From assembly GCA_022508305.1 (NCBI GenBank), contig JAFLVM010000001.1:1032932-1096931 (forward strand): DNA of 64,000 bases, in the 5' to 3' direction. This DNA comes from Clostridiales bacterium (GTDB lineage Bacteria > Bacillota > Clostridia > Christensenellales > CAG-314). The notes below the pieces were generated by a model. That model was not told where the DNA came from. It worked only from the letters and a program-made list of their open reading frames with translations, and did not search any database. Numbering within the stretch: position 1 is the stretch's first letter; each line of letters starts with the position of its first letter. The translations under genes and the position numbers were made by a program. This document shows, in pieces, positions 894-3,947 of the stretch.

Positions 894-3800
894 TTAACCT
901 CTGTTTCCAAAAACTATTTTAAAGCATGCCCCATGCAATACTCTATACTTGGATATTTCTACAATGTCGATGCTATGTCCATCTTTTTCTAGTACTCTTT
1001 TAGATATTGTCAATCCTAACCCCCTTCCATTCGGCTTTAATGAATAAAAAGGTTTGAAAATATCGGACTTGTTTTCTGCTAAAATGCCTTTTCCATTATC
1101 TTCAATATAAAGTGCATTTTCCTCTTCAACGTAATGTATATAAATTTTTTTCTGTGGCGCACCAACGGTCCAAAAGATCGCATTCGAAATTATATTTGAC
1201 AAAGCAGGATAAAAATGTGAAGGAAGAATATTGACAAAAATGTCTTCATTAACATTTACGCTAAGTGAAATATTTTCTCTATTTAAAGTTGGCGTGAATA
1301 ACTTTACTGTTCCGTCGACAATATCCTTCAAATTATAGGATTTAATTTCATCTGTCTTGATTTTATACATTGGAGACAACAAGGTATGCCGAGAATAAAT
1401 AGCATCAAACGCAATCTGAATTTGCTTTAACCAATATCTAGAATCTTTGTCAGCTAGATAGGCGTTGAGTTGTACAATTGCATCGTTAGCCTTGGTGTAA
1501 AATTGATTAAATTCGTGATTCAGTATCTCTGAAGCCATACCAAAATTAGCCAAATCTTCATATAGATCGACTTCATCTTTCAATAATAAATTTTCGGCTT
1601 TCAGCATTCCAATGATTTTATCGTCATGCGATGCGTAATCGTTACTCTCTAATATTTCCTTTATTTTATGGACTATGAAAGATTTCTGCTGAAGTGAATC
1701 ATTAAATTGTTTATAGAAATTATCAAAATCATTTAACTTTTCTTCACAAAAATCACTTATCGTTTTTGATAAATCTTCATATTGATACGTTTTGTGCGTA
1801 GCAGATGCGTCTAATTTTACATTATTTTTAAAGTCGTCGATTACATGGAAATATTCTTCTAAATCAAAATCTGGGTTGATTAATTGATTTAATTGCTTGA
1901 CTTCGCTTTCGACATCAGATTTCAAGTTTTTTTGTTTATTTATAAAATCGTTATATAATTCTAGTATAGTTGATTTTAAATTATCAAGTCTAGAAATTAA
2001 TATAGCTAATTTTGTTTCATGTTCAGTTTTTTCGATTAATACCTTATTGTATTCTTTTTCCTTCCGACGACCAAGAGTTAAAACAGTAATTAAAATATTC
2101 TCTGCTTCTCTATATAGCTCATCAACTTCATTGTTGAAACTATTGACACGAATGAAAATCTTATTATCATTTTGAGCAATATCGCTTATATATCTCTCTG
2201 GGATTCTCATTATATATTTATCCCTAATTTGCTCTAATTTGTATCTGAATGCTTGAGCTTTGTCATATAAAAAGTCAAAACGATCTAATAATTGTTCGTC
2301 ATGTAAGTCGGATAATTCCTTGCCCAAACGCTCGACTTCATTTATCAAATCAGCAATTTCCGCACTAAAATCTTTTTTTTGCGATAGGCACGATTGAATA
2401 TTTTTAATTAAATTCCTATACTTTTCTCTTTCTTGCTTTTCATAAGCTTTTTTAGTTTTGTTTTCTTCCTTTAATTTGTTATAGTGCTCCACCATATATG
2501 TTCTAATATTAAAGGAATCTTTTCTGGCGCTTGATAAAAAGTCTAACGCTATTTTGATAAGTAAATTTTTTAGAGTTAAAATGAAATATTGATATTGCTC
2601 GTTTTCTATAAATCCTTCCCTGCTAGATTTGTCTTCGAGTTGAGGATTTTCTTTAGATGTAATGTCAATTCGGCCAAAAATGTTTCTATGACTAAACACA
2701 TAAACACCTGCCTTAATCGTTCTTCTTTTCTCTATTTCTAGATAATCGTTTTCGGGCTCACCGTAAGGCAGAACTTTAACGCCGTCTCTATATATTCCTA
2801 TGCCTCCCAAAACGTCTATTTTTTCATGTATTCTTTCGTATATTTCTTTTGGTAATGCAGAATTCTCTTGAATTCCTTCAATATGACAGATTTTTACACG
2901 AATTGGACCACAGTCAGAATTTTTTAAATCCTTGATTCCCGCTGAAACGTCTATGCCATTGGCTAGTACTGCATTAGCTTTTTGTAGGACTGTATCATTA
3001 GAATTTCTCGCAAATAATTGACCGCAGAATATGCCCGCTTGAATAGTGCCCTCAAATTTGATATCATAAATATTAAAATCATTTTCATCATAGTCTTCAT
3101 GAAAATAGAGCACTTCGTTATTTTTAAAAACTTCAACAAAATCATTATTGCTTCCTTCATATTTTTTATATGCCGAATTTAAAGTCGCAACAAAGTTAGA
3201 CAAACGTTTATAATTCTTTTCGGCAGACAAATCGTCGTTAATAGAAATATCACTTTGAATTAGAATACTATTCCAATCATCACGCAAATTGCACATGAAA
3301 AGCATTGTGCCTTTTTTTTCTATGAGAGGCAAATAATTCAAAATTTCGTTAGCTTTTGGTTTAAGCATGCATATATTTTCAACATAGATTTCTTTAACTA
3401 TCGGATTAAATGTGGATTGCGCATATTTTTCAACATTACGCAACTGCGTATTTATAAGTTCATCAATTATAGAATTAAAGTTGGAAACCAATTCCTTACC
3501 ACTAACATCGTAATACGTAGGAATTTCTAAATCCTCTAAAGCGATACTTGTATCTTCAAATAAATCCCAGTACAAATACACAATATTGTAATTTCCCAAT
3601 ATCGTCTTTGTGATCATGAGGTATTGTTTACTTAGACGTGCAGAGGCAAGACGCCCTATGCCTTTTGCTCCCATATATGGGCGTCCTTTGTTTGACACTC
3701 TATTTTTAGTATTTTTAGACGGCGTACCTAGAACTAGCCATTTACCCTCAATGTCTTCCTTGTCCATCCCGTCGCCATTGTCTATCAAAATTATATTGTC

Positions 3801-3947
3801 TTGATTCGAATTAAAATAAACTCTTACCCAATCTGCATCAGCATCATAAGAGTTTTTCATCAATTCCGCAAGTGCGGTTACGGAATCCCTTATTTGTTTT
3901 CGACCAAGCAATTCTATGGCTCTAGCTTTTGTCTTGAATTTTGACAT
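894..3947 (-). CDS. Dual-GHKL protein: N-terminal MORC/Hsp90-type ATPase module, long coiled coil, C-terminal histidine-kinase DHp + CA domains; no obvious TM helix
   Basis: 1017-aa ORF with GGGAG RBS 6 nt upstream. N-terminal Bergerat motifs: ELMKNSYDA (aa 28-36), DNGDGM (56-61), GAKGIGRLAS (93-102). C-terminal kinase motifs: H-box SEILNHEFNQF (His811, nt 1515-1517), N-box SNIISNAIFW, G1 EDNGKGI, F IFKPFYS, G2 GRGLGLTISKRV. Residues ~520-800 are heptad-rich and highly charged. Confidence 0.85.
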   Translation of the reverse strand: MSKFKTKARAIELLGRKQIRDSVTALAELMKNSYDADADWVRVYFNSNQDNIILIDNGDGMDKEDIEGKWLVLGTPSKNTKNRVSNKGRPYMGAKGIGRLASARLSKQYLMITKTILGNYNIVYLYWDLFEDTSIALEDLEIPTYYDVSGKELVSNFNSIIDELINTQLRNVEKYAQSTFNPIVKEIYVENICMLKPKANEILNYLPLIEKKGTMLFMCNLRDDWNSILIQSDISINDDLSAEKNYKRLSNFVATLNSAYKKYEGSNNDFVEVFKNNEVLYFHEDYDENDFNIYDIKFEGTIQAGIFCGQLFARNSNDTVLQKANAVLANGIDVSAGIKDLKNSDCGPIRVKICHIEGIQENSALPKEIYERIHEKIDVLGGIGIYRDGVKVLPYGEPENDYLEIEKRRTIKAGVYVFSHRNIFGRIDITSKENPQLEDKSSREGFIENEQYQYFILTLKNLLIKIALDFLSSARKDSFNIRTYMVEHYNKLKEENKTKKAYEKQEREKYRNLIKNIQSCLSQKKDFSAEIADLINEVERLGKELSDLHDEQLLDRFDFLYDKAQAFRYKLEQIRDKYIMRIPERYISDIAQNDNKIFIRVNSFNNEVDELYREAENILITVLTLGRRKEKEYNKVLIEKTEHETKLAILISRLDNLKSTILELYNDFINKQKNLKSDVESEVKQLNQLINPDFDLEEYFHVIDDFKNNVKLDASATHKTYQYEDLSKTISDFCEEKLNDFDNFYKQFNDSLQQKSFIVHKIKEILESNDYASHDDKIIGMLKAENLLLKDEVDLYEDLANFGMASEILNHEFNQFYTKANDAIVQLNAYLADKDSRYWLKQIQIAFDAIYSRHTLLSPMYKIKTDEIKSYNLKDIVDGTVKLFTPTLNRENISLSVNVNEDIFVNILPSHFYPALSNIISNAIFWTVGAPQKKIYIHYVEEENALYIEDNGKGILAENKSDIFKPFYSLKPNGRGLGLTISKRVLEKDGHSIDIVEISKYRVLHGACFKIVFGNRG

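Follow-up and report, generated by a model that had tools for sequence, protein, structure and literature searches.

Genes and features of the locus

The window analyzed in this study is a 64,000-nucleotide stretch of DNA from a Clostridiales bacterium (contig JAFLVM010000001.1, positions 1,032,932 to 1,096,931 of the forward strand), and the subject is a set of three genes at and beyond its left edge, designated H, R and M. H is an open reading frame (ORF) with an ATG start that encodes a 1017-residue fusion of a paraMORC-type ATPase to a histidine kinase. R, the predicted receiver partner of H, has its start codon 3 nt after the stop of H and is cut by the left window edge, and M encodes a C5 DNA methylase. 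Genes beyond the edge were read from contig L001, which is identical to the window at 3947 of the 3947 bases that the two have in common. An earlier note, made from the letters of the window, had drawn attention to the MORC-kinase ORF, which was confirmed here; it had overlooked the receiver partner, the methylase and the tRNA-bounded islet in which all three genes lie (Table 1).

The three genes make up a 6.9-kb islet that starts at a tRNA-Thr(GGT) gene and has a GC content of 31.8%, against 47.7% outside. The 33-nt 3' end of the tRNA gene (4769-4801) is duplicated at the opposite end of the islet, some 2.1 kb past the left window edge. The two copies of this direct repeat (L001 9147-9179 and 16084-16116) are 94% identical and 6937 bp apart. 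The repeat is an att-like duplication and the segment is an integrated islet. No integrase or other mobility gene was found within the 6.9 kb.

Table 1. Positions in the window, strand and supporting evidence for the features of the H-R-M locus.
Feature	Position	Strand	Evidence
Gene H, paraMORC-histidine kinase fusion	894..3947	-	ORF and translation, Pfam, AlphaFold2 and Foldseek, homologs, dN/dS
N-terminal Bergerat-fold ATPase of H, residues ~1-230	3258..3947	-	HATPase_c_3, conservation in 49 homologs, BbrUII/HgiDII match
Middle S5/transducer-like domain of H, residues ~270-470	2538..3140	-	AlphaFold2 model, Foldseek, invariant columns
Coiled-coil linker of H, residues ~480-770	1638..2510	-	AlphaFold2 secondary structure, conservation
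DHp (dimerization and histidine phosphotransfer)/HEF_HK domain of H, residues ~775-862	1362..1625	-	PF19191, conservation, ThkA alignment
CA (catalytic ATP-binding) domain of H, residues ~869-1012	912..1343	-	HATPase_c, invariant boxes, Foldseek
Gene R, Response_reg_2 partner, first 296 of 549 codons	1..890	-	L001 13058-14707, PF19192, AlphaFold2
Gene M, C5 DNA methylase, 346 aa	outside the window, overlaps 3' end of R		PF00145, E=8.4e-55
AT-rich non-coding leader, 821 bp	3948..4768	-	ORF list, promoter scan, Rfam, GC
tRNA-Thr(GGT), islet integration site	4769..4844	-	ARAGORN, Rfam

Domain organization of H

The H protein consists, in order, of an HATPase_c_3 domain, an S5-like middle domain, a coiled coil, a HEF_HK DHp domain and an HATPase_c domain. 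Three Pfam families matched H, all above the curated cut-offs: HATPase_c_3 on residues 24-115 (E=1.3e-21), HEF_HK (PF19191) on residues 802-862 (E=2.7e-11, 44.2 bits against a cut-off of 24.1) and HATPase_c on residues 911-1010 (E=4.5e-17). Residue conservation was scored in 49 homologs that are 34-79% identical to H, and the AlphaFold2 model of H was built on 49 homologs (mean predicted local distance difference test, pLDDT, 76). In both Bergerat folds and in the H-box, the catalytic residues are invariant or at least 90% conserved among these homologs.

The N-terminal module contains the three ATP-binding motifs of the GHKL superfamily, each of them invariant in the 49 homologs. ELMKNSYDA (residues 28-36) holds motif I (ExxxNxxD; E28/N32/D35), DNGDGM (56-61) holds motif II (DxGxG; D56-G58-G60) and GAKGIGRLAS (93-102) holds motif III (GxxGxG; G93-K95-G96-G98). 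Members of the BbrUII/HgiDII restriction-enzyme family have an N-terminus that is similar to this same region (E=7e-18). The middle domain, modeled with a pLDDT mostly of 80-95, carries the invariant motifs RDG..LPYGEP and LEDKSSREG, with invariant columns at R387, D388, P394, Y395, G396 and K440-G445. In a Foldseek search of the PDB, residues ~1-500 matched the ATPase modules of MORC2, MORC3 and SMCHD1 over about 500 columns each, and the best match was a MORC2 structure with DNA (9cdh_B, E=1.3e-10, 503 columns). In the model, H has a GHKL domain followed by a predicted S5-fold transducer, as in the MORC and paraMORC ATPases.

For the linker, continuous helix is predicted over ~290 aa (residues 481-767), with one helix of 96 residues. 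Model confidence drops from about residue 640 on (pLDDT 42-75), and the linker sequence is poorly conserved. The C-terminal ~230 residues match the kinases HK853, CpxA, ZraS and ThkA in the PDB (Foldseek E ~1e-9 to 1e-8). The candidate phospho-acceptor, His811 (codon 1515-1517), lies in the H-box SEILNHEFNQF (residues 806-816) and is aligned with the H-box His of ThkA (3a0r); it is at least 90% conserved, and E812 and Q815 are invariant. The CA domain, which superposes on that of ThkA with a TM-score of 0.79, contains the G1 box DNGKG (residues 950-954), and its invariant residues N918/N922, D950-G952-G954, F964/F967 and G974-G976-G978 correspond to the N, G1, F and G2 boxes. By sequence, the C-terminus of H carries the hallmarks of a class I histidine kinase, namely the H-box His and the N, G1, F and G2 boxes.

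Most of what the earlier note had read from the sequence was borne out by these results. It had described a single soluble polypeptide with two separate GHKL modules, and both modules were recovered by Pfam (HATPase_c_3 and HATPase_c) with no transmembrane-like segment in H (maximum Kyte-Doolittle 19-residue mean 1.4). It had reported neither a transmembrane helix nor PAS, HAMP or GAF input, and no Pfam match to these domains was found in H. The four motifs quoted in it, including SEILNHEFNQF with His811, are all at the residues that it gave, and its coiled-coil linker of ~280 aa agrees with the modeled helix. Its MORC/Hsp90-type assignment of the N-terminus held in the hidden Markov model and structure comparisons that it had proposed, the region folding in the model as GHKL plus S5, and its C-terminal DHp/CA kinase was likewise recovered through HEF_HK, HATPase_c and the structural matches. 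Lastly, the MORC-like module, which it had taken for the sensor, does occupy the sensor position of the kinase.

At least 1894 homologs of H were found and, among the 120 matches listed, nearly all share its three Pfam domains. In a comparison with a 76%-identical relative, in which dS is near saturation, the dN/dS ratios of H, R and M were 0.078, 0.128 and 0.048, respectively. All three genes are under purifying selection.

The receiver R and the methylase M

R itself scores 22.6 bits against Response_reg_2 (PF19192), below the cut-off of 27. Homologs of R at 42-66% identity do carry PF19192, 74 of 76 proteins encoded downstream of H relatives match Response_reg_2 (best E=6.8e-45), and in an iterative search all of these downstream proteins collapse into one family. 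Judged by these homologs, R belongs to the Response_reg_2 family despite its own sub-threshold score.

The model of R (AlphaFold2, mean pLDDT 66) has a (beta-alpha)5 receiver fold in which Asp110 lies where beta3 ends. Conservation was scored in 76 family members that are 12-25% identical to R of this locus. The candidate phospho-acceptor Asp110 (codon 561-563) is invariant in these proteins, and conservation reaches at least 90% at T/S143 and K183. In 96-97% of the wider family, the Mg2+-binding acidic pair that follows beta1 is DD; in R and in its H-R-M subclade it is E19-N20 (window positions 831-836, minus strand). D110, S143 and K183 are retained in R despite this substitution.

The translation of M shows the catalytic motifs PCQ, ENV, QNRRR and GNAVP. 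No Vsr gene is present at this H-R-M locus.

Linkage and genomic context of the relatives

A scan of species-representative genomes recovered relatives of H in at least 540 of them, patchily distributed over many phyla of bacteria and also some archaea. The locus survey covered the 80 best loci and two copies of the locus described here (82 loci). A co-oriented R-family ORF of ~520-640 aa follows H in 80 of 81 loci, and only two of the 82 lack a C5-methylase homolog. The linkage of H, R and M is obligate. In 71 loci the genes are arranged M-H-R, frequently with reading frames that overlap, and the H-R-M order found here is rare (4 of 82). A Vsr-like gene lies ahead of M in 45 loci. Beyond Vsr, no further recurrent gene and no separate nuclease were found in the 82 loci, the other clusters being antisense artefacts within core genes. 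Since no other gene recurs, whatever effector there is must be part of H or R.

The public annotation of relatives as 'sensor histidine kinase' and 'response regulator' would suit an ordinary two-component system of the cytoplasm that controls a physiological regulon, with the methylase next to it by chance. We consider this explanation highly improbable. The patchy occurrence across phyla and archaea, the low-GC tRNA-bounded islet, the near-universal linkage to a DNA methylase and the MORC-type input module all argue against it.

The surroundings of the relatives fit defense islands. For example, the closest relatives of H (76% identical) have the same H-R-M triad within a dense defense island (locus L089, 1-19800), where it is flanked by a second R-M cluster on one side and a Pycsar system on the other. 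Upstream of that triad are a SNF2/ResIII helicase, a SACS-type ATPase, a helix-turn-helix regulator, two C5-methylases, a 517-aa protein without assigned function and Vsr, and downstream is a Pycsar system (cyclase and PycTM). The copy in Proteiniborus adjoins ToxN, NERD, recombinase and IS21 genes, and plasmid copies adjoin toxin-antitoxin modules. The earlier note had linked the N-terminal module to restriction and conflict systems and had asked for a survey of homolog neighborhoods; in that survey the relatives appear as patchily distributed island genes and not as core-genome kinases.

A variant triad fills most of a 6.2-kb scaffold from the human-gut virome (L094, MT837790.1, 'UNVERIFIED Bacteriophage sp.'). 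At positions 764-5620 it encodes an N6/N4-methylase, a 753-aa short-form kinase and a 446-aa protein without assigned function. This scaffold suggests that mobile elements may carry or package the module.

The frequency of Vsr also bears on another explanation, in which the triad is a selfish epigenetic or repair module: a MutL-like GHKL protein acting with the methylase (and Vsr) would handle 5-methylcytosine damage, or post-segregational killing would stabilize the islet. The 45 loci with Vsr speak for the first form, as does the analogy of paraMORCs to MutL in VSR and mismatch repair (Iyer et al. 2008, PMC2292703), and an islet without an integrase could persist by addiction. We nevertheless regard this explanation as decidedly improbable, as Vsr is absent from this locus, the relatives lie in defense-island contexts and AbrB, a sister kinase of H, is required for phage defense. 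In addition, Vsr accompanies C5-methylases in general.

The C-terminal domain of R

The middle domain of R (residues 206-385, ~180 residues) is all-helical in the model. It is followed by a conserved, beta-rich C-terminal domain of ~150 aa, in which G412, C425 and C430 are invariant and R434 is near-invariant among the 76 R proteins. A near-invariant Asp after C430 is replaced by Gln in the subclade of this R. The C-terminal domain has no Pfam family in any of the 76 proteins, and profile searches of PDB sequences with it gave nothing meaningful. In a search of 1.84 billion representatives it was restricted to the C-termini of its own family, plus fragments.

A 392-aa protein (P0149) on a single 2.2-kb metagenomic contig has a Response_reg_2 N-terminus that is abruptly joined to a PLD-type (PF13091) domain, and its C-terminus is garbled. 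It was considered as an effector swap and rejected. Because of the single contig, the abrupt junction and the garbled end, it is taken as a probable assembly chimera.

Structural comparison of the R model returned MazF/PemK toxins as the best compact matches in both libraries searched. In the PDB these were seven chains from five MazF-family entries (Foldseek probability 0.95-0.97, TM-score ~0.5, weak E of 0.06-0.1), and in BFVD the match was a PemK-like protein (probability 0.82, TM-score 0.49). A MazF/PemK-like fold for the C-terminus of R is suggested by the model as a weak lead. It raises the possibility of abortive infection, in which the same relay from H to R would release a toxin resembling a MazF/PemK-type endoribonuclease that arrests the infected cell, with no restriction of DNA. 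The agreement of two independent libraries and the order of predicted elements in R, beta-strands followed by a long terminal helix, are consistent with such a toxin. However, the Foldseek E values are only 0.06-0.17 on a model of medium confidence, and hhalign of a 73-sequence profile of the R domain against MazF, Kid and CcdB gave a probability of 0.1%. To our knowledge, the invariant residues of R (Gly, two Cys, Arg) are also not the MazF catalytic set. We therefore view abortive infection by a toxin of this kind as unlikely.

A related kinase required for phage defense

The Ambrosia system, described in a 2025 preprint, protects Pseudomonas against phages (bioRxiv 10.1101/2025.09.30.679545). 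Its genes encode an XRE regulator (AbrR), an N6-methylase (AbrA), the 747-aa AbrB, a 209-aa REC protein (AbrC) and an HNH protein (AbrD), and point mutants in every component, such as AbrB N40A and AbrC D60A, abolish protection (10.1101/2025.09.30.679545). We found residues 1-399 of AbrB to be homologous to residues 4-448 of H (E=9e-28), with N40 of AbrB corresponding to N32 of H. The loss of defense in AbrB N40A is the only indirect support for a predicted ATP-dependent dimerization, ATP hydrolysis and DNA binding by the N-terminal module of H. Like H, AbrB is a fusion of HATPase_c_3 to HATPase_c, and its operon also encodes a DNA methylase and a REC protein. Unlike H, it does not have HEF_HK among its listed Pfam domains, and the methylase is an N6 enzyme, whereas M is a C5 enzyme. 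The short-form kinases of Campylobacter plasmids and of the virome scaffold described above also have no HEF_HK match, and their partners are not Response_reg_2 proteins.

An Ambrosia-like locus is present on a Klebsiella variicola plasmid (L093, NZ_CP063918.1, 2700-7600). Its AbrB-like kinase is annotated as three separate coding sequences, and the gene is probably decayed by frameshifts.

Transcriptional control, the working model of the Ambrosia authors (10.1101/2025.09.30.679545) and also a speculation of Bellieny-Rabelo et al. (PMC8011034), is another explanation: H and R would be a two-component system with gene expression as its sole output, and on infection phosphorylated R would activate the methylase or restriction genes that are not linked to it. 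In Ambrosia, there is hardly any expression at the methylase and nuclease positions before infection, and AbrC is described as a REC domain plus a winged helix (10.1101/2025.09.30.679545). Control of restriction-modification (R-M) systems was suggested for the HEF_HK/Response_reg_2 pair (PMC8011034), and the helical middle domain of R could hide a DNA-binding motif. Several points stand against this explanation. First, no helix-turn-helix or other DNA-binding family was detected in any of the 76 R proteins. Secondly, the beta-rich C-terminal ~150 aa of R, in which two Cys and one Gly are invariant, do not resemble an output helix-turn-helix. Third, the module has no conserved nuclease gene for R to govern. 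Lastly, a single operon couples the translation of M, H and R, so that R would be under its own control. For these reasons transcriptional control seems to us improbable as the only output of the pair.

Proposed mechanism

On balance, we consider it somewhat probable that H-R-M is a horizontally acquired defense against phages or plasmids that is methylation-linked and gated by a phosphorelay. This proposal draws on the domain composition, the catalytic conservation, the linkage of the three genes, their mobile and defense-island context, the purifying selection on all three, the homology of H to a kinase required for defense and the precedent of a similar GHKL N-terminus in BbrUII/HgiDII restriction enzymes. 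In such a system M would mark the host DNA. The MORC-type GHKL+S5 module of H would act as an ATP-driven, dimerizing DNA clamp that responds to DNA without the M mark or to another infection-specific DNA state. Movement of the clamp would be passed along the coiled coil to the DHp helices, the CA domain would phosphorylate His811, and the phosphoryl group would move from His811 to Asp110 of R. Phosphorylation would then release the C-terminal domain of R, which would itself perform the restriction or growth arrest. We infer the signal of the MORC module, the direction of signal flow and the effector activity of R.

A more specific form of this proposal is that the M-H-R triad is self-contained immunity, in which a MORC clamp is wired to a His-Asp relay, the input is DNA methylation or topological state, and the effector is new. 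The effector would be the domain with Gly...Cys-x4-Cys and the near-invariant Arg, possibly a MazF-like barrel going by the model, which is found only in the R family. We put this form forward tentatively and consider it rather doubtful.

Several results weigh against the phosphorelay-gated defense system proposed here. No nuclease motif or family was detectable in H or R. The MazF/PemK resemblance, with the E values and the hhalign probability reported above, was obtained on an R model with a mean pLDDT of 66. The E19-N20 pair in place of DD could change or weaken the phosphorylation of R. No experiment was found on any long-form member of the family, that is, one that combines HEF_HK with Response_reg_2. 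Ambrosia, in turn, differs in several respects. Its authors favor transcriptional control, and methylation did not protect phage (10.1101/2025.09.30.679545). AbrC has no significant similarity to R and is not a Response_reg_2 protein, and this locus lacks the separate HNH nuclease and the XRE regulator of Ambrosia. Ambrosia represents a sister lineage that has other partners and has only the AbrB-like component in common with H-R-M.

If the MORC-like module is the input of the kinase, this system would be a tractable bacterial model for MORC clamps that read the state of DNA, which bears on eukaryotic MORC biology, and it would be a clear case of a two-component relay that serves immunity. If the M-H-R triad is self-contained immunity, it would represent a mechanistically new way of linking an epigenetic self mark to an effector with no classical restriction nuclease involved. 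The conserved domain of R, which has no assigned function, must hold the output activity. The islet described here has three genes with no Vsr, extra regulator or separate nuclease, and is thus a clean candidate for cloning and testing.

Neighboring features in the window

The leader between the tRNA gene and H is unusually long for a promoter region. It has a GC content of ~28-32% and no ORF of at least 40 aa, and a promoter-like TTGAAT-17-TATAAT sequence at 4226-4198 was identified by consensus match only. Rfam gave only the tRNA, with no family in the 821 bp of the leader.

Further into the window, a 1051-aa ORF (8584-11739, plus strand) is largely coiled-coil and has no precomputed Pfam domain. 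It lies divergently beside DnaD/DnaB_2-like (6934-8394) and DnaC/IstB-like (5999-6934) genes, and could be an SMC/Rad50-like protein.

Comparison with known systems

PF19191 (HEF_HK) and PF19192 (Response_reg_2) were defined in 2021 by Bellieny-Rabelo, Pretorius and Moleleki (PMC8011034). The combination of HATPase_c_3, HEF_HK and HATPase_c is their predominant "group 1" (174 of 222 sequences), the HEF_HK gene family was linked to that of Response_reg_2 in 91.6%, and type II R-M genes and C5-methylases were enriched near HEF_HK genes (PMC8011034). The N-terminal GHKL domain was proposed as the sensor and the HEF_HK family as a branch from the paraMORCs (PMC8011034). This locus and the 2021 system are alike in the group 1 architecture, in a soluble kinase, in the Response_reg_2 neighbor and in the C5-methylase. 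They differ in that the order here is H-R-M and not the usual M-H-R, Vsr is absent, and R is just under the PF19192 cut-off with E-N for the DD acidic pair. The 2021 family is purely computational. By its domains, H-R-M is a member of that family and not a new architecture. The earlier note had not recognized the architecture as a described family; PF19191 was built on such proteins, and because this claim of novelty was wrong, the interpretation in the note is only partly supported.

The paraMORC and MORC ATPases of R-M systems were described by Iyer, Abhiman and Aravind in 2008 with no kinase fusion among them (PMC2292703). These ATPases (BbrUII/HgiDII, VcSduA) resemble H in having GHKL+S5 with intact ATP motifs, in their association with cytosine methylases and Vsr, and in their sporadic, laterally mobile distribution. 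However, the paraMORC R-M families carry or neighbor nucleases (RE-fold, HNH, DUF4263) or helicases, none of them was described with a C-terminal DHp+CA kinase, and the output here, unlike theirs, is a predicted His-Asp relay. VcSduA (paraMORC3-Shedu) was considered as a match and set aside as a cousin only, with a DUF4263 nuclease and no kinase. Compared with a type II R-M system, a methylase with its motifs is present here, and the only link to a restriction enzyme is the BbrUII/HgiDII-like GHKL N-terminus. A link to MADS was rejected, since the only histidine kinase in the MADS paper is an unrelated island boundary gene.

In PADLOC v2 no model matched H or R, including every Detocs model, and M matched generic methylase models only. 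Detocs resembles this locus in using a histidine kinase-receiver relay for phage defense with an effector fused to the receiver. Its sensor is not known to be of the GHKL/MORC type, and it has a buffer receiver protein and a nucleosidase effector, with no known methylase.

The eukaryotic proteins MORC2, MORC3 and SMCHD1 provide the best structural matches to residues ~1-500 of H, DNA-bound MORC2 among them, at a sequence identity of only 12-14%. Unlike these proteins, H has no CW, chromo or other chromatin-reader domain, whereas the kinase module of H is absent from all three.

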